Shown one piece after another: positions 196 through 35,212 of a DNA stretch of 35,504 nucleotides. The position numbers and the translations under genes were made by a program. The notes below the pieces were generated by a model that worked only from the letters and a program-made list of their open reading frames with translations, made no database searches and had not been told where the DNA came from. Each line of letters begins with the position of its first letter. Positions within the stretch are counted from its first letter, which is position 1. Source of the DNA: a virus; the IMG/VR virus record IMGVR_UViG_3300021387_000081, positions 1-35,504 of that record. The stretch is one strand, 5' to 3'.

Positions 196-777
196 ATGAA
201 AATCGAAGTCAGAGCTGACGGACTGCATATAAGCGGCTACGTCAACGTCACCGGCAAGCTGAGCAGACCGGTGATAACACCCAGAGGCAAAGTCCTTGAA
301 ACTATCGAGGAGAGAGCTTTCAGCGAGGCTATCAAGAAGAACGGCGACATCACGGTGACACTCGATCACGATCAGGGGCACGCCTATGCAAATACCCGTG
401 ACGGTTCTCTCGTTCTCCGTGAGGACGCTATCGGACTTCACGCCGATGTGCTCATCACAGATGAAACAGTCATCGAAATGGCACGCAAGGGCAAACTGAG
501 AGGCTGGTCCTTCGGTATGTTCAACGTACAGGACGAAATCGAGAGCCGCGGTGAGGACGAGCTGCCGATCAGACACGTCAAGAGCCTGGAACTGGATCAT
601 GTGTCCCTCATCAAGGACAAGATACCGTGCTACGCTGCGACATCGGTGGAGTGCCGTGCAGGCGGTGACATCGACATGGAGCTGCGTTCCCTCGATATCG
701 AGCCTGTGCTTGTCATCGAGAACAAGCCGGACTACAGCGATTATGAGAACAGGCTGAAAATGCTGGAATTCGAGTGA
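196..777 (+). CDS. HK97-family prohead protease (S78/U35-like)
   Basis: 193-aa ORF lying after the portal-side cassette ORFs and before the capsid gene, separated from it by the 778-1563 cassette. N-terminal MKIEVRADGL..GYVNV and the LDHD..H pattern are typical of prohead proteases. SD aaagga lies 9 nt upstream of the ATG. Confidence 0.85.
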   Translation: MKIEVRADGLHISGYVNVTGKLSRPVITPRGKVLETIEERAFSEAIKKNGDITVTLDHDQGHAYANTRDGSLVLREDAIGLHADVLITDETVIEMARKGKLRGWSFGMFNVQDEIESRGEDELPIRHVKSLELDHVSLIKDKIPCYAATSVECRAGGDIDMELRSLDIEPVLVIENKPDYSDYENRLKMLEFE

Positions 778-828
778 AGGGCAATTGAGCTCCGGTATCG
801 CCAGTACATTCAGCTGCCGAATGGTAAA

Positions 829-1179
829 ATGAATGGCAGCAGGAGTATAGGCGGCGGAAGTCGAAAGCTCTATCATCACGATCCGGATACCGGAGGTGGC
901 GGGAGCACGAAGAAAAGTGTTGACAAATCATCAGATGATGGTGTACAATATGGTAAAGAAGAAATCAAGAATGATTTCGATGGAAAACCATATACCTATC
1001 CTGAATTACATTTACCTAAGAAAGAATATGGCACTGTTATAAGGCAAATCGATGATAACTATGAATCTAAGTATAAAGGCAAGAGTATAGGCTTTCACAG
1101 TACGTCAAAATATACCTATAAATTTGAAATACGTGGATATAACGATTATAACATTTTTTCAAAATGGAAAAATGATTAA
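829..1179 (+). CDS. Leader-linker-variable domain module (type-1 leader). The conserved coding signal already starts at 778, in frame after the protease TGA
   Basis: Same frame as the protease. Codons 787-858 encode ELRYRQYIQLPNGKMNGSRSIGGG, matching portal residues encoded at 34278-34349. The C-terminal 75 aa are AT-rich and unrelated to the other cassettes. Confidence 0.55.
   Translation: MNGSRSIGGGSRKLYHHDPDTGGGGSTKKSVDKSSDDGVQYGKEEIKNDFDGKPYTYPELHLPKKEYGTVIRQIDDNYESKYKGKSIGFHSTSKYTYKFEIRGYNDYNIFSKWKND
920..949 (+). promoter_or_regulatory. Sigma-70-like promoter inside the linker codons (TTGACA-18-TACAAT)
   Basis: ttgaca at 920-925 and tacaat at 944-949. Flank aaaagtgTTGACAaatc matches the four other junction promoters. 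This is the weakest of the set. Confidence 0.45.
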
Positions 1180-3073: not shown

Positions 3074-3421
3074 ATGGCATACAACAAAAAGATCGAGATA
3101 CAGTATCTCACCGAAGAACAGGACGATATCGGCAATGACCTCTCCCATTGGACTGTACTTTTCCGTCCATGGGCGGAGATAATCGGCACAGGCGGAAGGG
3201 AATACTATGCAGCCGCACAGGTAAACTCCGAGAACGATATGCAGTTCAGGATACGCTATTCATCCTGCATGGAAGGGAAACTCTCATCTGAGCTGAGGAT
3301 AGTCTACAAAGGACTTATATACGATGTGAAGCACATTGACGACGTAAATGAGCAGCACCGGGAACTTGTAATAAGGGCTGAGCAGCATAACGGAGGTGTC
3401 AGGGATGAGCATAACACCTGA
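3074..3421 (+). CDS. Head closure / head-tail adaptor (SPP1 gp16-like)
   Basis: 115 aa containing W..LFRPWAEI..GGREYY.A.QVN.E....FRIRY, and in the syntenic position. Confidence 0.75.
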   Translation: MAYNKKIEIQYLTEEQDDIGNDLSHWTVLFRPWAEIIGTGGREYYAAAQVNSENDMQFRIRYSSCMEGKLSSELRIVYKGLIYDVKHIDDVNEQHRELVIRAEQHNGGVRDEHNT

Positions 3422-3773
3422 TGACTTTGTAAAGTCACTGACGGAGTGCTGCGCGGAGTTCACGGAGGAGATCACGGAGAAGGTAGAGGAAGGCATAAAG
3501 ACCATAGGTGAGGAAGCTGCCGGGGAAGTCAGGGCACTCTCACCGGTTGACAAGGGCGCTTACCGGCGCAGCTGGAAAACACGTTTCGAAAAGGTCCGCG
3601 GCAGCATGACCGTGACAGTCTATGCCGGAGGAAGACACTACCGCCTGACTCATCTGCTGGAAAAAGGTCACCTGAACCGTGACGGGACTACCCGTGCAAG
3701 GGCTATACCTCATATCAGCACAGCTCAGGAGCATGCGGAAAAGAAGACAGATAAACTTCTGGAGGGACTGTAA
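3405..3773 (+). CDS. HK97 gp10-like tail-completion/neck protein
   Basis: ATG 3405 lies 8 nt after GGAGG. Contains the RRSWK and HLLEKGH motifs and sits in the syntenic position. Confidence 0.7.
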   Translation: MSITPDDFVKSLTECCAEFTEEITEKVEEGIKTIGEEAAGEVRALSPVDKGAYRRSWKTRFEKVRGSMTVTVYAGGRHYRLTHLLEKGHLNRDGTTRARAIPHISTAQEHAEKKTDKLLEGL

Positions 3774-4123
3774 TGGAACTCAGTGAGATAAAATCAAAGC
3801 TTGACACGATAGGTGTTCCTGTAGCCTACATGATGTTCAGCAAACCACAGAAACTGCCGTTCATAGTGTACTATGAATCCGGTACGGACATCCGCGGAGC
3901 TGATACACTGGATCTCCTGCGCGAAACTGAGATAACAGTTGAAATGTACTCGGACAGAAAGCTGCCGGCTATTGAACGGCAGATAGAATCCCTTTTTGCG
4001 GACAGGGAGATAAAAAAGTCCGCAGATGTATATCTGAGCGAAGAGAAGATGCTGATGACTGCATTTTCTTTCGATACAATAATAAAAACAGGAGGAAATG
4101 AGAATGTCACATACACAGACTAA
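3773..4123 (+). CDS. Putative tail terminator/tail-completion protein
   Basis: 116 aa, start overlaps the preceding stop by 1 nt (TAATG, stop 3771-3773, ATG 3773-3775). Called from position between the neck genes and the major tail gene only. Confidence 0.5.
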   Translation: MELSEIKSKLDTIGVPVAYMMFSKPQKLPFIVYYESGTDIRGADTLDLLRETEITVEMYSDRKLPAIERQIESLFADREIKKSADVYLSEEKMLMTAFSFDTIIKTGGNENVTYTD

Positions 4124-4685
4124 AGAACTTAACCGCATACCTCTCGGCTCCATGGATTTCTACATCGTGGAATTCACCGGAGGAACTATCCCGGCGGACA
4201 ACGTCATTGAGACAGAAGCCAACATGATAGGACGTACAAAGAACGGTGCTACCGTCCGTTACAATGCCACATGGTATCTGGCTGAATCAGATGACGGAAA
4301 GGCCAAGAAGCGCAAGCTCACCGGTGAGAACGCTTCAATAGCCTACGGTAATATCACCTGGAACGGAAACACGCTGAAGAAGCTCATTGCCACAGCAAGA
4401 GTTACTGAGGCCGACGGCAAGCGCACCACTAAGATCGGCGGCATAACCAACGACGACGGAAAGCGCTATCTCATCCGCGGTGTACACAAGGACGCTGTTG
4501 ACGGAGATGTGAGGATAACCGGTGTCGGTGTCAACACTGGCGGCTGGGAGGCGGTATGGTCGCCCACACAGGAGACCGTGCTCAATCCTACTTTCGAGCT
4601 TGAACCCAAACTTGATGCTGACGGCACCCTTCTCATCCACGAAGAGGAGATAGTCGAAGCCGCTTCATCCGGAAATAATAATTAA
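4104..4685 (+). CDS. Major tail protein
   Basis: ATG 4104 lies 8 nt after GGAGG (an alternative ATG is at 4098). 193 aa, lies upstream of the chaperone pair and is followed by a terminator. Confidence 0.7.
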   Translation: MSHTQTKELNRIPLGSMDFYIVEFTGGTIPADNVIETEANMIGRTKNGATVRYNATWYLAESDDGKAKKRKLTGENASIAYGNITWNGNTLKKLIATARVTEADGKRTTKIGGITNDDGKRYLIRGVHKDAVDGDVRITGVGVNTGGWEAVWSPTQETVLNPTFELEPKLDADGTLLIHEEEIVEAASSGNNN

Positions 4686-4691
4686 GACTAA

Positions 4692-4720
4692 GGGACGCTG
4701 TCTGACGGCGTCCCGTTTTC
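4692..4720 (+). terminator. Intrinsic terminator after the major tail gene
   Basis: gggacgc/gcgtccc stem followed by gttttc. Confidence 0.7.
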
Positions 4721-4740
4721 TATAATCAAAGGAGCTTACT

Positions 4741-5010
4741 ATGAGAAGATACAGATTCACACTTGACAACGGAACGGTTCTGAATATCAAGCCGCCTACA
4801 CTGAGACAGTACTACAAGGGGCTGCTCACGGCAAAGAACGATGCACAGCTCTTCCGTGCAGTGGCAGAGATATGCACTGCCAATGATGAGGGTATTGCTG
4901 TGACTGAGGAATATGTCATCGACAATTTCACTGTTGATGACCTGAGCAGGTTCATGCGCGGACTGAATTCCTGGATAAATACCGAGCGGAGCGCTGACCC
5001 AAACTCATAA
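4741..5010 (+). CDS. Tail assembly chaperone (gpG-like)
   Basis: 89 aa, located immediately upstream of the tape measure gene and ending just after a slippery heptamer. Confidence 0.8.
   Translation: MRRYRFTLDNGTVLNIKPPTLRQYYKGLLTAKNDAQLFRAVAEICTANDEGIAVTEEYVIDNFTVDDLSRFMRGLNSWINTERSADPNS
4998..5004 (+). promoter_or_regulatory. -1 programmed frameshift slippery site C CCA AAC
   Basis: An X XXY YYZ heptamer in the zero frame, 2 codons before the gpG stop. The -1 frame is open from 4998 to 5279. Confidence 0.75.
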
Positions 5011-5279
5011 CGCCTTATTATCCCGGAGACGGAGAGGATAAGGCGTATTTCAAGAATCCCACCGGTGATGAGAAGCTTGTATCAGATTACACGAGACTCA
5101 GCTTCCGTGAGGTGGAGGAACTGGACCTGTTTGAATACTTCGGCTACCTTCATGACGCAGTGGTCTGGGGATGCAGCAGGAGCGAGGCGGGCAGGGAATA
5201 TCTGGAGAACGCATATTACTATCAGCAGACGGAGCCAGACCGTGAGGCACTGAGGAGGTTCGGAAAGAATGGCAGGTAA
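4998..5279 (+). CDS. gpGT-like -1 frame extension of the tail assembly chaperone
   Basis: The -1 frame reads PKLITPYYPGDGEDKAYFKNPTGDEKLVSDYTRLSFREVEELDLFEYFGYLHDAVVWG...RRFGKNGR and stops at TAA 5277-5279, overlapping the tape-measure ATG. Confidence 0.7.
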   Translation, partial: PKLITPYYPGDGEDKAYFKNPTGDEKLVSDYTRLSFREVEELDLFEYFGYLHDAVVWGCSRSEAGREYLENAYYYQQTEPDREALRRFGKNGR

Positions 5280-27941: not shown

Positions 27942-28016
27942 GGCAGGTTGGAACAGCGGCAGTTCGCAAGGCTCATAACCTTGAGGTCGTGGGTTCGAGT
28001 CCCACACCTGCAACCA
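27942..28016 (+). tRNA. tRNA with CAT anticodon (Met, or Ile2 if lysidine-modified)
   Basis: Manual cloverleaf: acceptor ggcaggt/acctgca, D stem gaac/gttc, anticodon stem caagg/ccttg with loop ctCATaa, T arm gtggg-ttcgagt-cccac, and an encoded ACCA. Positions 1 and 72 are G and A (unpaired). Confidence 0.8.
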
Positions 28017-28100: not shown

Positions 28101-28304
28101 ATGGACATAAACAAATGCACCTGCGGAGGACTTGCAGAGCTGAAACGAGAGTACGCGAAAAATAGCGTGAGCATGAAAATAGAGTGCATTTCCTGCGGAC
28201 GAAGTGGGAGAACAGTCACTCTCACTGCCTCAGGTCCGATACCCGAAGCAATGCTCGACAGATTCGCTGAGCAGCTGACAGCAGACTGGAACGCCGGCAG
28301 ATGA
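28101..28304 (+). CDS. Lar-family restriction-alleviation-like protein
   Basis: 67 aa with C.CGG...C.SCG and a C-terminal A.DWN..R, the Lar-family pattern as I recall it. SD ggaggg. Confidence 0.55.
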   Translation: MDINKCTCGGLAELKREYAKNSVSMKIECISCGRSGRTVTLTASGPIPEAMLDRFAEQLTADWNAGR

Positions 28305-28660
28305 AGAAGGCATGTCCGTACTGCGGAGGCATCCACAGCAGCGGCGAAGTCTGCGCGAAAAAGCCGGCAGAGAAGAACGCTTCATCCGGCGCAGATGTGT
28401 TCCGCGGCAGCTATGAGTGGAAGGAAAAGCGTGGATACATCATGCGCCGTGACAAGTATCTCTGTCAGGCGTGTCTTCACGGTATAGGCGGAAAGATCCG
28501 GCTCTGCAACGAGGAACTATCAGTGCATCATATACGGCCGCTGAAAACTAACTTTGAGTTGCGTTTAGATGAAAAAAACCTGATAACACTATGCCGTTTT
28601 CATCACGAAAAGGCAGAAAGCGGAGAAATTTCTGCGGAAAAATTGTTAAAAATCTTGTAA
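28301..28660 (+). CDS. HNH endonuclease (terminase-associated)
   Basis: Contains C.YCGG, YLCQAC, VHHI.PL and LCRFHH, and lies immediately upstream of terS. Confidence 0.85.
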   Translation: MKKACPYCGGIHSSGEVCAKKPAEKNASSGADVFRGSYEWKEKRGYIMRRDKYLCQACLHGIGGKIRLCNEELSVHHIRPLKTNFELRLDEKNLITLCRFHHEKAESGEISAEKLLKIL

Positions 28661-28743: not shown

Positions 28744-29214
28744 ATGAAAGGACGTGATACTGTGGCGAGACCGGCAATGAGTGCGAAAACTACGTCAAAG
28801 CACCTTACGAAGGCGGAGGCTGAGGCAAAGTCCTCGACCGAAGAACTGCTCAGAGGCAGGGCAGACAGGCTGCGTCCGCCTAAGTATCTGACGACTGCGC
28901 AGAAGAAGATCTTCAAGTTCATCGTCCGGGAACTGGAGGGCAGCGGCATCCTTGGCAATCTGGACATCTATGTGCTGACCGAGTGCTGCATCGCGCTTGA
29001 CAGGATGCAGGAGATAGAGAGCAGGATCAATCAGGATCCGGTGCAGCTCAGCAATGACAAGCTGCTGCAATCGAAGGACAGATATACGAAGTCCTTCTTC
29101 CGCTGCTGCAATGAGCTGTGCCTGAGTCCTCAGAGCAGGGCGAAAATGGGCAACCTCAACTTGCAGGCGAAGGAAGAGAATCCGCTGCTGAAGGTGCTGA
29201 GCGATGATGAATAA
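28744..29214 (+). CDS. terS: Terminase small subunit (P27 family)
   Basis: Contains P.YLT..QKKIFKFIV.EL...GILGNLD...L...C.ALDR, typical of P27-family small subunits. Confidence 0.8.
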   Translation: MKGRDTVARPAMSAKTTSKHLTKAEAEAKSSTEELLRGRADRLRPPKYLTTAQKKIFKFIVRELEGSGILGNLDIYVLTECCIALDRMQEIESRINQDPVQLSNDKLLQSKDRYTKSFFRCCNELCLSPQSRAKMGNLNLQAKEENPLLKVLSDDE

Positions 29215-29839
29215 AGACTGGTTCATAGATTACGCGGAACATGCGGTCAGAGTGATAGACATCGAGACACGCTGGTATGAGCTCAGAGGCTGGATAACAA
29301 AAAACGGAAGGCATATCCTGATTGGCGATGATGAGGGTGGCAGCTCCACCAGCGGAGCAGGCAGAAAAGCTGCCAAAAAGGTTGACAAAGCCGGGGAAAG
29401 TGGTATAATTGAAGAAAAGACAGGAGAAACGGCGGGAACTGATGTGCATAAAGTTGGAAAGATAGATGTTGAAAAGTTTGAAACTATTGCAAATGGAAGA
29501 ATTCTCACCGACGAGGTGATCATAACAGATAATCGGATCGAACACATTATTGAGCGAAGAGGTCAGAAGTTTTATGACGATTTTAAAGGCTATTTTCCTG
29601 AAATAATAGAAGCACCCGACTATATATTCAAAGATGATATGGACAATACAGCTATTGTGTCTAAATCATATAGCCATAAGGGAAAAACAGTAAACTTAGT
29701 TCTTAGGCTCGTAGTTGAAGGGGAAAACCCAAGCTATAAGAATTCTATACTAACTGCAATTGGTGAGAACGAGAAAAGATTTGCTCAACGTTTACGCAAT
29801 AACGTTCCTGTGTATAAAAAAGTTGACAAATCAGAATAA
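29204..29839 (+). CDS. Type-2 leader, Gly/Ser linker and PBECR-like (barnase-EndoU-colicin E5/D-RelE fold) nuclease domain
   Basis: 211 aa. The leader is WFIDYAEHAVRVIDIETRWYELRGWITKNGRHILIG. The C-terminus ITDNRIEHIIERRG...PEIIEAPDYIFKD..NTAIVSK...VNLVLRL resembles phage PBECR domains. The gene sits between terS and terL. Confidence 0.7.
   Translation: MMNKDWFIDYAEHAVRVIDIETRWYELRGWITKNGRHILIGDDEGGSSTSGAGRKAAKKVDKAGESGIIEEKTGETAGTDVHKVGKIDVEKFETIANGRILTDEVIITDNRIEHIIERRGQKFYDDFKGYFPEIIEAPDYIFKDDMDNTAIVSKSYSHKGKTVNLVLRLVVEGENPSYKNSILTAIGENEKRFAQRLRNNVPVYKKVDKSE
29219..29325 (+). repeat. 107-nt direct repeat (leader coding), partner at 31762-31868
   Basis: 9 mismatches by eye. Five fall in the codons for ELRG and all five are synonymous. 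Confidence 0.9.
29382..29409 (+). promoter_or_regulatory. Extended -10 consensus promoter inside the linker codons (KKVDKAGESGII)
   Basis: TTGACA at 29382-29387, a 16-nt spacer ending in tgg, and TATAAT at 29404-29409. Confidence 0.55.
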
Positions 29840-29857: not shown

Positions 29858-29980
29858 AAGATAAGAGTAGGTTATCAGAGGTGGTAAATTTCGTAGCGAC
29901 CACACGCCGCTGGTAACGACAGGGAGTAATCCCGAGAGATGCAGGAGAATGCTACGCCTGCCTGATAACCACTCTTTCCA
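29858..29980 (+). ncRNA. Candidate structured RNA between terS-side cassette and terL
   Basis: A 15-bp long-range helix (29863-29878 with 29962-29976, one bulged A) encloses hairpins 29881-29903, 29922-29933 (GUAA loop) and 29941-29961. Two hairpin loops carry complementary hexamers cgtagc and gctacg. Confidence 0.45.
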
Positions 29981-29981
29981 G

Positions 29982-30014
29982 ACCGCTTCGAGAAATCGGA
30001 GCGGTTTTCTTATA
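29982..30014 (+). terminator. Intrinsic terminator T4 (family GCGGTTTTCTTAT)
   Basis: accgcttcga/tcggagcggt stem with GAAA loop, followed by ttttcttata. Confidence 0.7.
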
Positions 30015-31749: not shown

Positions 31750-32385
31750 ATGGATAATAATTGGTTCATGGACTACGCGGAACATGCGGTCAGAGTGATA
31801 GACATCGAGACACACTGGTATGAATTACGCGGCTGGATAACAAAAAACGGAAGGCATATACTGATTGGTGAAGAAGGCAGTTCTTCCGGCGGAGCAGGCA
31901 AGAGTATTGACAAATCTGCGAAAAGTGGTATAATAAAATCAGGAGCGGTGAGTGGTGCATTATCTCCTGCCAGCAAAGAAGCACAGGCTCATGCTGAGCA
32001 ATACTATGAGTCTGTTCGTAAAATGAAAACAGATGTAAAAAACATCTCAAATAATACCGGCTTTAGTGAAAGCGACATTTTGCAAATAAAGAATCATGTA
32101 TTCATAGAAGAACATGATTTGGGCGGAGACGTCCCAGAGCGTTTTTATCCCAATTATGCTATGGCTCAATCATGGCAAAGGCTTATTGAGGGTAAAAACA
32201 TCCAGAAGCACGATATTACACTGCTTCATCACGAAAAAATGGAAAGCGATTTGATGAAGAAGGGCTTATCTCAGATAAAAGCTCATAGTATATCTGAGAA
32301 AAAGTTTAATTATGCTAAAGAAAGTAGGGAGTATTATGCTGAGATTAATAAACATAGCGATAGGACTAAAAACAATCGAAGCTGA
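31750..32385 (+). CDS. Type-2 leader, Gly/Ser linker and an unrecognised C-terminal domain
   Basis: 211 aa. The leader is WFMDYAEHAVRVIDIETHWYELRGWITKNGRHILIG. The C-terminal region ...IKNHVFIEEHDLGG..PERFYPNYAMAQSWQRLIEGKNIQKHDITLLHHEKMESDL has no homology to the other cassettes. ATG 31750 follows gaggtgg. Confidence 0.7.
   Translation: MDNNWFMDYAEHAVRVIDIETHWYELRGWITKNGRHILIGEEGSSSGGAGKSIDKSAKSGIIKSGAVSGALSPASKEAQAHAEQYYESVRKMKTDVKNISNNTGFSESDILQIKNHVFIEEHDLGGDVPERFYPNYAMAQSWQRLIEGKNIQKHDITLLHHEKMESDLMKKGLSQIKAHSISEKKFNYAKESREYYAEINKHSDRTKNNRS
31762..31868 (+). repeat. 107-nt direct repeat (leader coding), partner at 29219-29325
   Basis: See the partner repeat. A 40-nt block tacgcggaacatgcggtcagagtgatagacatcgagacac is identical in both. 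Confidence 0.9.
31907..31934 (+). promoter_or_regulatory. Extended -10 consensus promoter inside the linker codons (KSIDKSAKSGII)
   Basis: TTGACA at 31907-31912, a 16-nt spacer ending in tgg, and TATAAT at 31929-31934. Confidence 0.55.
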
Positions 32386-32584
32386 TTATATCCCTGAAAA
32401 TAGTGATAAGTCAGCACATATAACGCTTGATATAAAAACAAGGGATTATACTGCCGAGAGTATCAAAGAATTCGGTTCAATGTATGGCAGAATGGCTGCA
32501 AACGGGCTTATAAGGACCCTTGATGAGCTAAAAAGCGGCAAGAGGAAAGAAATTCCCGAAGAAAGACTTGTTATGTGGTATTAA
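32336..32584 (+). CDS. 82-aa protein overlapping the 3' end of the upstream variable domain, candidate cognate partner
   Basis: ATG 32336 lies 5 nt after agggag and overlaps the upstream gene by 50 nt. AT-rich. Confidence 0.5.
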   Translation: MLRLINIAIGLKTIEADYIPENSDKSAHITLDIKTRDYTAESIKEFGSMYGRMAANGLIRTLDELKSGKRKEIPEERLVMWY

Positions 32585-32604
32585 TACCTAAGGTGGGAGG
32601 ATTA

Positions 32605-32721
32605 ATGAAAGTTAAGTACACTGGTAAAACAAGTTTTCTTGTTCTGACAAACGGAAAGATATATGATGTCATTTCTGTCGAAAAAGGTTGGTACAGAATC
32701 AAAGACGACAAAGGTGCTTAA
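32605..32721 (+). CDS. 38-aa short paralogue of the ORF at 34721-34882
   Basis: MKVKYTGKTSFLVLTNGKIYDVISVEKGWYRIKDDKGA compared with MKVKYIGKQYLDTAFEKDKIYEVISVEKGWYRIMTELDEDYLFPPECFEIVEE. SD ggtgggagg. Confidence 0.45.
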   Translation: MKVKYTGKTSFLVLTNGKIYDVISVEKGWYRIKDDKGA

Positions 32722-32811
32722 AGCAACTAAAAAAGGTGAATATCGTGATAACGAATACCGAACGGTAGTAAATAAATTCCTTGATAATCAGCAGAAAGGT
32801 GGGCTTTTTGA

Positions 32812-32922
32812 ATGGAAGAAATGAATGTAGTTCTTGACGGATCAAATAAGGAAGGCTCTGAGAGACTTGCTGAAATGATCAAAAGACTTGAGGAAGAAAA
32901 GAAAAAAGATAAGACCGTCTGA
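32812..32922 (+). CDS. 36-aa charged peptide (speculative)
   Basis: SD aaaggtggg lies 8 nt upstream. The stop lies inside the T3 stem. Confidence 0.3.
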   Translation: MEEMNVVLDGSNKEGSERLAEMIKRLEEEKKKDKTV

Positions 32923-32944
32923 GAGATCAGGCGGTTTTCTTATG
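32914..32944 (+). terminator. Intrinsic terminator T3 (family GCGGTTTTCTTATG)
   Basis: accgtctga/tcaggcggt stem with loop gaga, followed by tttcttatg. Confidence 0.7.
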
Positions 32945-32983
32945 CCTATATTAAAACGCGAAGTGAAGTAAACAACGCTTGAA

Positions 32984-33030
32984 AGCATTTGTGACCGGCA
33001 CCAATGTCGGCTGCAAGTGCTGTTTTTATA
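32984..33030 (+). promoter_or_regulatory. Conserved extended hairpin plus U-tract, copy C (upstream of portal)
   Basis: agcatttgt (32984-32992) pairs with gcaagtgct (33013-33021). Inner stem is ccggca/tgtcgg, followed by gtttttata. Confidence 0.65.
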
Positions 33031-33047
33031 TCCAAACCACGAAAGGA

Positions 33048-34724
33048 GTGGTCAAAATAGGACTTTTCAGACGAAAAAAGCGGCAGGAAATAAGGGCGGA
33101 TACAGCTCAGAACGGCGAAAACACCATACTGACGTTCTTCGGACTGACCGGAGAACTTACGCGGGAGGCTGCGCTGAGCATACCGACGGTATCAGCCTGC
33201 ATCGGCAAGATAGGGGAGACCATATCGCGGCTGCCGGTGAAGCTTTACAGGAAGGATGAAGAGCAGGTCACGGAGATATCCGACGATGACCGGCTGAAGC
33301 TGCTCAACGGCAGCACCGGCGACACTCTCAGCACTGTTGACATGTGGAAAGCAGCGGTGGAGGACTACTACCTCGGGCGCGGAGCATGGATATACGTCAA
33401 CAGCGACGGTCTGAGTGTCCGGAGCCTGCACTATGTGGACAGCCGGAACGTGAGCATCATGTGCAACAATGATCCGATATTCAAGGCATTCAGAGTGCAG
33501 ATAAACGCGCAGAACTATTATGATTTCCAGTTTATCAAGCTGCTGAGGAAGACGCGGGACGGCTACACGAACATCCCGTTGCAGGAGGAGGCATCCTCGG
33601 TACTTTCGGCAGCGTGGAACGCTCTGAAGCTGGAGAACATGATGAACTCCAACGGCGGCTGCAAGCCGGGCTTCCTGAAAGCGAAGAACAGGCTCTCGGA
33701 TGCGGCGATAGCAGCGATCAGGGAAGGTTACCAGAAGGTCTATGACAACGAGCAGAAGCGTGACAAGATAATCGTGCTGAATGACGGTGTTGACTTCGAG
33801 GCGATATCCTCAACGGCTGCGGAGCTCCAGATGAACGAGAATAAGAAGACCAACAGCATCGAGATCTGCAAGCTGTTCGGCTTCCCTCATACGGTCATTG
33901 ACGGCGGAGCATCCGATGACGACAACAAGAAGTTCATTTCGGCGGTCATATCGCTCCTGAATCAGATCGAGACAGAGCTGGACAACGTTCTCCTGCTTGA
34001 ATCCGAGAAGGAGCAGGGGTATTACTGGGCGTTTGATACCAAGGAACTGACACGCGGCAGTCTTCTTGAACGTATGCAGGCTTATGAGATAGCCAAGCGG
34101 AACAACATCCTGCAGGTGGATGAGATCCGCCGGGAAGAGGACTATGAGCCTCTCGGCTTCAACTATATCACCCTCGGTCTTGCTGATGTTCTCCTTGATC
34201 CTGTTACTATGGAGGTCTATACCCCCAATACCGGACAGACAAAGAACCTTGTTACCGGTGAGGAACGGGCACTTACAGAGCTGAGGTACCGCCAATATAT
34301 CCAAGGTCCTGACGGAAAGATGCAGGGGAGCAGAAGCGTAGGCGGAGGAAGAGCGACGAAAAAGGTTGACAAATCCAAAAAAACTGATATAATAAAATTA
34401 GAGGATATTGAGGTCGGAAAGTCACTTGGAGCAAAGGCTAAAAACTATGACATTATGGATTTGGAAACGGGTGAACATTTTAACCTTGTTGAAAGGACCA
34501 GTTTGCAAGATGTTGAGGTCTTTGCTGGAAAGGGCGTTAAATCTGAGTTCCGAAAAGCTGATAAATATGCTAAAAAATACGGCGGTAAAGCCAAAGATTG
34601 GCAACACGCTAAAGGCACAGGAACTGTAGATTATTACGGTGAAGGGCGAAAAGCTGAATTACACTGGGCACAGTGTGAAGGTATAGGAAAACACGATTTT
34701 TTCATAAAGAGGTGGTTGGAATGA
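33048..34724 (+). CDS. Portal protein (HK97 family) with a roughly 130-aa C-terminal leader-linker-toxin-like extension (start uncertain: GTG 33048 or ATA 33057)
   Basis: The portal core includes ALSIPTVSACIGKIGETISRLPVKLY. After ELRYRQYIQGPDGKMQGSRSVGGG comes an AT-rich domain VGKSLGAKAKNYDIMDLETGEHF...WQHAKGTGTVDYYGEGRKAELHWAQ...FFIKRWLE, which resembles C-terminal toxin domains seen on MuF/gp7 head proteins. Confidence 0.85.
   Translation: MVKIGLFRRKKRQEIRADTAQNGENTILTFFGLTGELTREAALSIPTVSACIGKIGETISRLPVKLYRKDEEQVTEISDDDRLKLLNGSTGDTLSTVDMWKAAVEDYYLGRGAWIYVNSDGLSVRSLHYVDSRNVSIMCNNDPIFKAFRVQINAQNYYDFQFIKLLRKTRDGYTNIPLQEEASSVLSAAWNALKLENMMNSNGGCKPGFLKAKNRLSDAAIAAIREGYQKVYDNEQKRDKIIVLNDGVDFEAISSTAAELQMNENKKTNSIEICKLFGFPHTVIDGGASDDDNKKFISAVISLLNQIETELDNVLLLESEKEQGYYWAFDTKELTRGSLLERMQAYEIAKRNNILQVDEIRREEDYEPLGFNYITLGLADVLLDPVTMEVYTPNTGQTKNLVTGEERALTELRYRQYIQGPDGKMQGSRSVGGGRATKKVDKSKKTDIIKLEDIEVGKSLGAKAKNYDIMDLETGEHFNLVERTSLQDVEVFAGKGVKSEFRKADKYAKKYGGKAKDWQHAKGTGTVDYYGEGRKAELHWAQCEGIGKHDFFIKRWLE
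34366..34393 (+). promoter_or_regulatory. Extended -10 consensus promoter inside the portal linker codons (KKVDKSKKTDII)
   Basis: TTGACA at 34366-34371, a 16-nt spacer ending in tga, and TATAAT at 34388-34393. Confidence 0.55.
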
Positions 34725-34882
34725 AAGTCAAATATATAGGTAAACAGTATTTAGATACAGCTTTTGAAAAAGACAAAATATATGAAGTTATTTCGGTTGA
34801 AAAAGGCTGGTATAGGATAATGACTGAGCTTGACGAAGATTATCTTTTTCCACCTGAATGCTTTGAAATCGTAGAAGAATAA
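34721..34882 (+). CDS. 53-aa small protein, candidate cognate partner, paralogue of 32605-32721
   Basis: ATGA overlap with the portal stop. SD agaggtgg. Confidence 0.55.
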   Translation: MKVKYIGKQYLDTAFEKDKIYEVISVEKGWYRIMTELDEDYLFPPECFEIVEE

Positions 34883-34945
34883 AGAAAACAAGCGTAATCT
34901 ATAATTCTAAGGGCAACTTCCTCACGTTTGAAAGGGAGTGAGCAT

Positions 34946-35212
34946 ATGTGTAAACTTTTTGATGAATGGGCATCAGAGATTGAGATGTTTTGTCAGAAAA
35001 ATGATCTCAGCTTTGACAAGGCAAAGACACTTTCGCAGTGTTGGGGAAAAGACGATCTTATCTTGCAGTACTACGATAAAGAAAAGGGGAAAAACGGACT
35101 GCTCGATGAAACACCTATGCCTGTTGTTCTCTGGATAAAACGTGATAAGAATGGAAATCTTTCATTTGAAAAAACTGAGCATACTGAAAAATACCTTGGA
35201 AAAGTTTCCTAA
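34946..35212 (+). CDS. 88-aa hypothetical protein (cassette cargo)
   Basis: ATG 34946 lies 7 nt after agggag. It is followed directly by terminator T2. Confidence 0.6.
   Translation: MCKLFDEWASEIEMFCQKNDLSFDKAKTLSQCWGKDDLILQYYDKEKGKNGLLDETPMPVVLWIKRDKNGNLSFEKTEHTEKYLGKVS

Follow-up and report, generated by a model that had tools for sequence, protein, structure and literature searches.

What a short, free-standing protein with a small overlapping neighbour does in the middle of a phage head module is the question raised by virus record IMGVR_UViG_3300021387_000081 of IMG/VR, the whole 35,504 nucleotides (nt) of which are referred to here as the window. The region concerned belongs to the module in which an HK97-type phage keeps its packaging and head genes, and the two open reading frames (ORFs) in question, ORF2 and ORF3, are placed as a unit between the terL and portal genes; the window matches contig C30 of a genome assembly (1.99 Mb, 70% complete). 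On the sequence comparisons and structure predictions described below, ORF2 and ORF3 are probably a cassette of the toxin-immunity type and belong to a system of polymorphic effectors of the phage head. As judged from alignments, ORF2 is modular, a leader of 40 amino acids (aa) and a Gly/Ser linker being joined to an exchangeable C-terminal domain (CTD), and ORF3 is probably the conserved partner of that CTD, i.e., an antidote or immunity protein. The coordinates of all features are collected in Table 1.

A search with the CTD (residues ~62-205) yielded more than 200 homologues, and full-length homologues of ORF2, 201-214 aa in length, were found on many contigs with an identity of 86-88%. A preliminary description of the locus, made from the letters and a list of ORFs, had allowed for the leader similarity being a recent duplication with the ORF disrupted in relatives; in the relatives the ORFs are intact. 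The same description had taken ORF2 for a second free-standing leader ORF and had noted that it is as long as ORF1, the first such ORF, situated upstream of terL, and that the two are unrelated beyond the linker. All of this stood: ORF2 is a genuine second leader ORF, each protein has 211 aa, which is a coincidence given the spread of lengths among the homologues, and the tails have nothing in common, a PBECR2 domain being present in ORF1 and no Pfam domain in ORF2. Among 41 CTD-bearing proteins from viral contigs, 16 were Phage_min_cap2 proteins, 16 were Phage_Mu_F proteins, two were Phage_portal proteins and the rest had short leaders, with the CTD at the C-terminus. No MuF domain (PF04233, PF06152, MuF3, MuF4) was found in ORF2 by Pfam. 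ORF2 therefore does not count among the MuF toxins, even though it has its CTD in common with them. Named phages carrying the domain include Streptococcus Javan330 and Javan583, prophages of S. suis, and Clostridium phage CDMH1 (gp4). In CDMH1 (L112, NC_024144.1, positions 3341-5042) the C-terminus of gp4 is an ORF2-type CTD and gp5, of 83 aa, overlaps it by 44 nt; gp4 is labelled 'head maturation protease' in RefSeq and 'putative minor head protein' in GenBank, the latter corresponding to the usual type of CTD carrier.

The AlphaFold model of the CTD is all-alpha with seven helices, and its predicted local distance difference test score (pLDDT) is above 90 over most of residues 80-200. Invariant residues in the alignment (A2) are Y86, W142, R144, L145, D155, H161, E162 and E165, and H81, H122 and H179 are nearly invariant. 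Because of this conserved His/Asp/Glu set a metal-dependent hydrolase may be guessed at; readings of the set as an HD domain, an HExxH peptidase or a Lipocone toxin (PMC12419801) were considered and are not claimed.

With regard to ORF3, the preliminary description had reported a small ORF with a good Shine-Dalgarno site starting before the ORF2 stop codon and had called the overlap typical of toxin and immunity genes. The ORF, its Shine-Dalgarno site and the overlap are as reported, and ORF3 is a genuine, conserved partner with the comparative hallmarks of an immunity gene: it is obligately adjacent to the CTD gene and overlaps it, it diverges faster than the CTD, and orphan copies of it occur. 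Close homologues of ORF3 fall into 17 clusters, all 17 of exactly 82 aa. An ORF3-family partner is adjacent to and overlaps the CTD gene in ~50 of the 53 distinct viral CTD loci: a homologue detectable by BLAST lies directly downstream of the CTD in 30 of the 53, typically with a 32-nt overlap, and 19 of 21 other loci examined have a divergent family member of the same length with an M(I/V)KLKNI start and a (V/I)MW(Y/C) end, the remaining two of the 21 having a second partner family, which also accompanies standalone non-phage CTDs and includes gp5 of CDMH1. The CTD-ORF3 pair travels as a unit among leader, portal and MuF carriers. ORF3 is 30-57% identical where the CTD is 52-69% identical. 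Compared with locus L007, both are under purifying selection, with a nonsynonymous divergence (dN) of 0.023 and a ratio to synonymous divergence (dN/dS) of 0.044 for the CTD, and a dN of 0.11 and a dN/dS of 0.15 for ORF3. The AlphaFold model of ORF3 (pLDDT 92) consists of a small sheet packed against one helix, and no DNA-binding domain was detectable in ORF3 by domain scans. A programmed +1 frameshift from ORF2 into ORF3, suggested by a fused protein (P0012), was considered and is unsupported: the fusion is known from a single short contig, and the nearest relatives of full length end as in the window. In P0012, from a Logan contig, the CTD and ORF3 are in one frame and an A-run (window ~32358-32367, aaaaacaatc) is one base shorter, probably owing to an indel in the A-run or to an assembly error; for structural studies the fusion might nevertheless be of use as a naturally occurring single-chain construct.

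Copies of ORF3 also occur without the CTD. An orphan homologue with 71% identity (P0162) was found on at least 24 metagenomic chromosomal contigs between EamA transporter and GH43 genes, with no CTD nearby. The island is ~600 bp long (L001 3900-4470; also L002-L006). It holds an intact 82-aa gene with a TTGACA-N17-TATACT promoter of its own, a truncated remnant of the 94-aa gene situated after the portal cassette of the window (34928-35212), and the cassette terminator (GCGGTTTTCTTATGTC); judged by this content, the host seems to have captured part of an array of phage cassettes. ORF3 was present in six of 300 genomes of the host family, and the five ORF3-bearing genomes that were checked held two intact pairs, one decayed CTD in which two stop codons occur, and three ORF3 copies as orphans. 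Partners thus persist without a CTD and the phage CTD almost never occurs without a partner, which is the pattern expected of immunity genes; together with the faster divergence relative to the CTD, the chromosomal orphans imply that ORF3 behaves as immunity genes do. Standalone pairs of CTD and partner, with a 4-nt overlap, are found in non-phage chromosomes.

The linker of ORF2 holds, in frame, a promoter that agrees with the consensus at all positions and has an extended -10 element, TGG standing directly upstream of TATAAT. Perfect TTGACA-N16/17-TGnTATAAT sites were found on the plus strand at 29382, 29823, 31907 and 34366, i.e., within 5 kb, the four sites comparing with 0.03 expected by chance in the whole window, and three of the four lie in linker codons. 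The fourth (29823) starts inside the last codons of ORF1 (KKVDKSE*), straddles the end of that ORF and is followed by a skipping-rope RNA and a terminator (to 30014), upstream of terL. At the junction before the CTD, 44 of the 53 distinct loci score at least 10/12, versus 2.3% of control windows. Codon choice at the junction is uniform, Ile being ATA, which lies in the -10 element, in 35 of 35 cases (background 33%), Gly being GGT in 25 of 25 (background 21%) and Val being GTT in 26 of 26 (background 30%); the residues of the junction vary and the bases T-T-G..A (-35) and T-G-n-T-A-T-A-A-T are kept. When the window is compared with L007, the linker shows a synonymous divergence of 0.068 and the CTD one of 0.54. 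By these comparisons the promoter element is constrained as DNA and not as peptide, and transcription from it would start near 31941. Translation of the CTD by itself from such a transcript is unlikely: the sole in-frame start between promoter and CTD is a GTG placed 2 nt after AGGAG, a poor initiation site, and the linker-promoter transcript would therefore probably yield ORF3 alone and end at terminator T3. Plausibly, the flexible linker is the nearest spot where promoter hexamers can be accommodated without damage to a folded domain. A third genomic match to the linker, on contig C108 (L108, 7552-7584), proved to be a near-identical promoter of consensus type where an ordinary host ORF of 212 aa begins, no cassette being next to it; the cassette promoters therefore resemble an apparently normal host promoter.

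The leader has a narrow distribution. A search with residues 1-48 returned only 45 proteins, with 30 representatives among 1.84e9 proteins, and common to all of them are the leader, the Gly/Ser linker and a junction of the form (V/I)DKSxxSGII, beyond which many unrelated CTDs follow. Among these CTDs are the known toxin families Ntox50 (P0192), PBECR2/3, DUF4258 and SprT-like, and also the domain found in fusion with the window phage's own portal protein (P0137, P0175). The slots occupied by leader ORFs are always terS-terL or terL-portal in related HK97-type phages, sometimes with two in tandem. The leader is composed of a predicted N-terminal helix of low confidence (MDNNWFMDYAEHAVRVIDIETHWYEL) and a junction motif (RGWITKNGRHILIG). 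The latter, with the linker, is also present C-terminally in portal proteins (L101, L105) and behind the protease after an in-frame TGA (L099), the variant in the window being ELRYRQYIQLPNGKMNGS, after the TGA at 775-777; in P0192 a stretch resembling the protease tail is joined directly, without a stop, to the junction motif. Related motifs (HWITKNGRRICI, HWVTINGAHVFIG) occur in 3-7 matched stretches inside giant MuF polyvalent proteins. A junction motif of the form HW(I/V)TxxG(R/H)x(I/V)xI stands apparently between domains in P0180, P0184 and P0188-P0191 (Zeta toxin, PARP-like, kinase and others). The motif may have a general role as a signal for punctuation or processing between domains, and it may mark the places where the maturation protease releases each effector.

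The window phage is HK97-like: its Peptidase_S78 protease continues past the catalytic domain that was matched into a tail of ~39 aa, and the Pfam match of its capsid protein leaves a long N-terminal region uncovered. The N-terminal half of the leader aligns in register with the protease tail (NKPDYSDYENRLKMLEFE), and with the P0154-type leader half as a BLAST-short query the protease tail of the window was the best non-leader match (E 0.013, six-frame set of 136,008 residues). The C-terminal tail of HK97 gp4 was reportedly found by Duda, Oh and Hendrix in 2013 to target the protease to the procapsid, and a capsid-loading role is attractive for the leader for this reason; by analogy such a role is a tentative proposition, with the chances for and against it nearly in balance. 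That the leader derives from the protease tail, as the alignment would have it, is rather doubtful, and the same degree of doubt attaches to the fuller proposal of a portable HK97-type capsid-loading tag, made up of a copy of the S78 protease tail and the junction motif HW[IV]TxxG[RH]x[IV]xI. At the protease gene itself, the frame that ends with TGA at 775-777 runs on into the junction motif, linker and another cassette (window 700-1179), with no start codon for 17 codons after the TGA, and the same layout (…EYE*RAAELRGWITKNGRHILIG…) was seen in an independent phage (L099 3947-4600); this arrangement suggests stop-codon read-through or a recently interrupted fusion. A suppressor tRNA for this TGA was ruled out, the only tRNA in the window being the tRNA-Met with anticodon CAT.

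The leader of ORF2 repeats that of ORF1 over 125 nt (29207-29331 and 31750-31874, 88% identity), and the two proteins share 45 of 78 residues (E 8e-26). The preliminary description had counted nine mismatches between 31762-31868 and 29219-29325, had assigned five of them to the ELRG codons as silent changes and had spoken of purely synonymous drift. A recount gave exactly nine mismatches, and the five, which fall in the codons for E-L-R (gag ctc aga against gaa tta cgc), are indeed all silent. Purely synonymous drift is an overstatement, as only seven of the nine are silent and two are replacing (I7M, R22H), four additional replacement differences between ORF1 and ORF2 lie in codons 2-4 (dN 0.076, dS 0.40 over codons 1-40), and the leader is chimeric. 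Its 5' part of ~70 nt is close to ORF1, with three mismatches in 60 nt (alignment columns 13-72); from GAATTACGC on, and with the whole linker included, ORF2 follows the allele of L091/L007, and ORF1 differs and has insertions. Over a 108-nt leader core the two copies in the window are mutually closest, with 10 differences versus 13-33 in other pairs. As read from these alignments, the ORF2 leader is a chimera in which the first ~70 nt have been homogenised with ORF1 and the remainder is the allele of other phages. Since the alleles switch at the E-L-R codons, the silent cluster is not drift but marks a gene-conversion or crossover boundary between alleles under purifying selection.

The breakpoints of the mosaic are sharp, and the stretch downstream of ORF3 has a similar character. 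Two mini-ORFs had been described ahead of the terminator; small ORFs at 32605-32721 and 32812-32922 do precede it, and a further, overlapping one lies at 32663-32824, but the two are remnants of displaced cassettes and not independent new genes. The first fossil, of 121 nt, is 96% identical to L007 3226-3346 and yields the 38-aa ORF 32605-32721 (phrog_34144, E 1e-13), which is truncated relative to the gene at 34712-34882; small genes of this type normally come after a portal-type CTD. The second, of 236 nt, is 99.2% identical to L093 4640-4875, and its portion 32711-32824 is the 3' tail of a 'HNHPRNSSYS'-type CTD, the peptide matching the C-terminal end of P0129 and P0131. The 36-aa ORF 32812-32922 (MEEMNVVLDGSNKEGSERLAEMIKRLEEEKKKDKTV) comes after a different CTD type in L093 and may be the orphaned partner of a displaced toxin. 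On this evidence the cassette is a product of recombination, and two displaced cassettes have left fragments downstream. In a relative (L103 7767-7868) a fossil leader start (MNNDWFIDYAEHR…) stands between terL and portal in a slot without a cassette, which is evidence of cassette loss.

If ORF2 and ORF3 are a toxin and its immunity protein, the leader would bring free-standing ORF2 into the procapsid and so replace covalent fusion to a portal or MuF protein, and the CTD would be carried along in the virion and have its effect in the cell infected next. In the producing cell ORF3 would bind and neutralise the CTD. The linker promoter would transcribe through the CTD to ORF3 and stop at T3, and lysogens would make the antidote constitutively with no toxin made. 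Several results weigh against this. The CTD has no informative match in Pfam, PHROGs, NCBIfam, PADLOC or a PDB sequence-profile search, and comparison of the ORF2 model with PDB and BFVD by Foldseek gave nothing below an E-value of 0.1. ORF3 has no match to characterised families in Pfam, PHROGs, NCBIfam or PADLOC, and its Foldseek hits in the PDB were not significant, the best being a CdiI immunity protein and a papain-toxin immunity pair (E 0.4-1). The AlphaFold model of the leader has a pLDDT below 50. The link of its N-terminal half to the protease tail is weak, with the BLAST-short match as sole support, and homology of the two was unsupported by a local hidden Markov model search (E ~5) and by hhalign (probability 2.3%). 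The standalone pairs in non-phage chromosomes imply that virion delivery is not obligatory for the function of the pair, and the promoter, 395 nt upstream of ORF3, could have a role other than driving ORF3.

The lack of any known toxin family or fold match for the CTD would fit a non-toxic effector carried in the virion, active against host defences or in host takeover in the manner of T4 internal proteins or Alt, with ORF3 as a chaperone, assembly factor or regulator; the tight overlap suits a co-translated chaperone equally, and many domains of head-packaged polyvalent proteins have been argued to counter host defences (Iyer et al. 2017, PMC5512222). The orphan ORF3 copies, with their own promoter at non-phage chromosomal sites, would however be chaperones without a client, which is hard to explain, sibling cassettes in the same slots bear bona fide toxin domains (Ntox50, PBECR2, DUF4258), and pairs of CTD and partner stand alone outside phages, so that this explanation is considered unlikely. 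Those free-standing pairs, arranged with their short overlap like type II toxin-antitoxin (TA) genes, speak in turn for a prophage moron, TA or abortive-infection module that serves the lysogen and is never packaged, the leader being only a recombination handle or translation-start module, and the promoter and terminator that flank the unit agree with this. PADLOC gave no match for the pair, which argues neither way here. A module of this kind is slightly less likely again, as the internal promoter probably yields ORF3 alone because of the poor GTG start before the CTD, phage CTDs are in their great majority joined to a MuF, minor capsid or portal protein, and leader ORFs are found only in packaging and head modules. 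The near-identity of the first ~70 nt of the leader (three mismatches in 60 nt) and the fossil fragments just downstream might finally be taken as signs that ORF2 has no function and is decaying, having arisen as a by-product when the start of ORF1 was recently duplicated locally. This is highly improbable and, as far as the conservation data go, already contradicted by intact full-length homologues on many contigs, by the strong purifying selection on the CTD and ORF3, and by confident AlphaFold models and good Shine-Dalgarno sites for both ORFs.

The preferred reading, a toxin-immunity-type cassette, can be compared with several known systems. The closest of them is that of the polymorphic MuF toxins, known from temperate phages of Firmicutes (Zhang et al. 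2012, PMC3482391; Jamet et al. 2017, PMC5576092), and 89% of MuF toxin genes have behind them a small ORF of presumed immunity function (Jamet et al., PMC5576092). Of the features by which polymorphic toxins are recognised (Zhang et al. 2012), a shared N-terminal module, recognised toxin CTDs in the family, a co-varying downstream partner (here the putative immunity gene) and displaced remnants or orphan modules were found here. ORF2 and the MuF toxins are alike in lying in the head and packaging module, in combining a conserved N-terminal part with variable C-terminal domains and in being followed by a small ORF, and the ORF2-type CTD is itself borne by MuF and Phage_min_cap2 proteins. Differences are the linker promoter, the word 'promoter' being absent from the main text of Jamet et al. 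(PMC5576092), and the trunk, which in ORF2 has no MuF domain and is reduced to the 40-aa leader; in addition, the CTD and ORF3 families are undescribed.

Internal proteins of phage T4 bear a capsid-targeting sequence (CTS), and the N-terminal signal of P1 DarB is likewise a capsid-targeting sequence (PMC9024508). In these systems and in HK97, with the gp4 tail, a short terminal peptide suffices for procapsid loading; the ORF2 leader may be likened to them, the HK97 tag being C-terminal whereas the ORF2 leader is N-terminal. Contact-dependent inhibition (CDI; CdiA-CT/CdiI) and colicin operons have a constitutive immunity promoter inside the toxin gene, and orphan immunity genes occur. Points in common with ORF2-ORF3 are the pre-toxin junction as a point of recombination, the immunity gene immediately downstream, displaced remnants, orphan immunity genes and an immunity expression that is uncoupled from toxin expression, as would apply to ORF3. 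In contrast, delivery of ORF2 would presumably be by phage capsid and not by secretion, and its promoter is written in frame into a flexible linker, where the putative toxin domain has its 5' edge. Morons of HK97 and HK022 are units of promoter, gene and terminator between late genes, and ORF2-ORF3 resembles them as an autonomous unit bounded by promoter and terminator between terL and portal; it differs in that its promoter is inside a late-expressed coding sequence. Type II TA modules are compatible in gene order and with the standalone pairs of CTD and partner. New elements are the leader as a minimal trunk, the families of the CTD and of ORF3, the islands with orphan partners and the promoter set in frame in the linker.

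Phage polymorphic toxins have so far been defined by the MuF trunk, and the toxin-immunity modules proposed here would also ride on other carriers, which within a single phage are the 40-residue leader, the portal protein or a position behind the prohead protease. A widespread, uncharacterised effector domain and its partner family are added, and the domain is carried by cultured phages (Streptococcus Javan, Clostridium CDMH1). The orphan partners in chromosomes of gut bacteria suggest that bacteria collect antidotes to phage-carried toxins, which would parallel the acquired immunity islands against type VI secretion effectors. With the promoter in linker codons, one stretch of DNA could serve two expression programmes, late synthesis of the toxin and constitutive synthesis of the antidote. 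If the leader is a loading tag, any protein might be loaded into HK97-type capsids by means of 40 residues, which would make it a simple handle for cargo.

Table 1. Features of the ORF2-ORF3 locus and of neighbouring genes, with positions in the window
Feature	Position	Strand	Remarks or support
Peptidase_S78 protease	196-777		Other end of the window, as is the capsid gene
tRNA-Met, anticodon CAT	27942-28016		Just upstream of HNH and terS genes; sole tRNA in the window
HNH endonuclease	28301-28660
terS	28744-29214
ORF1, 211 aa: leader and PBECR2 nuclease domain	29204-29839	+	Pfam PBECR2, E 1.2e-8
Leader copy A, start of ORF1; paralogue for comparison	29207-29331	+	Repeat family D1, 88% identity
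Skipping-rope RNA	29871-29969		Rfam RF02924, 51 bits
terL	ends 31742
Shine-Dalgarno GAGGTGG for ORF2; overlaps terL stop codon	31741-31747	+	Read from sequence
ORF2, 211 aa: leader, promoter-bearing linker, variable CTD	31750-32385	+	ORF list
ORF2 leader, residues 1-40	31750-31869	+
Gly/Ser linker and junction peptide KSIDKSAKSGII	31870-31935	+	Alignments
In-frame consensus promoter TTGACA-N16-TATAAT in linker	31907-31934	+	12/12 match
ORF2 CTD, residues ~63-211	31936-32382	+
Shine-Dalgarno AGGGAG for ORF3, 4 nt before ATG	32326-32331	+	Read from sequence
ORF3, 82 aa, 50-nt overlap with ORF2 end	32336-32584	+	ORF list
Fossil 1, 5' fragment of phrog_34144-type small gene	32590-32710	+
Fossil 2, displaced-CTD 3' tail, 36-aa follower ORF and terminator	32711-32946	+
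Intrinsic-terminator-like hairpin T3, 11-bp stem then UUUUCUUAU; closes the cassette	32912-32946	+	dG -18.1 kcal/mol, z -3.7
portal	32979-34724

Terminator T3, which closes the cassette, has a tail (GCGGTTTTCTTAT) in common with sites at 30001 and 35238 of the window and with the orphan island of L001.

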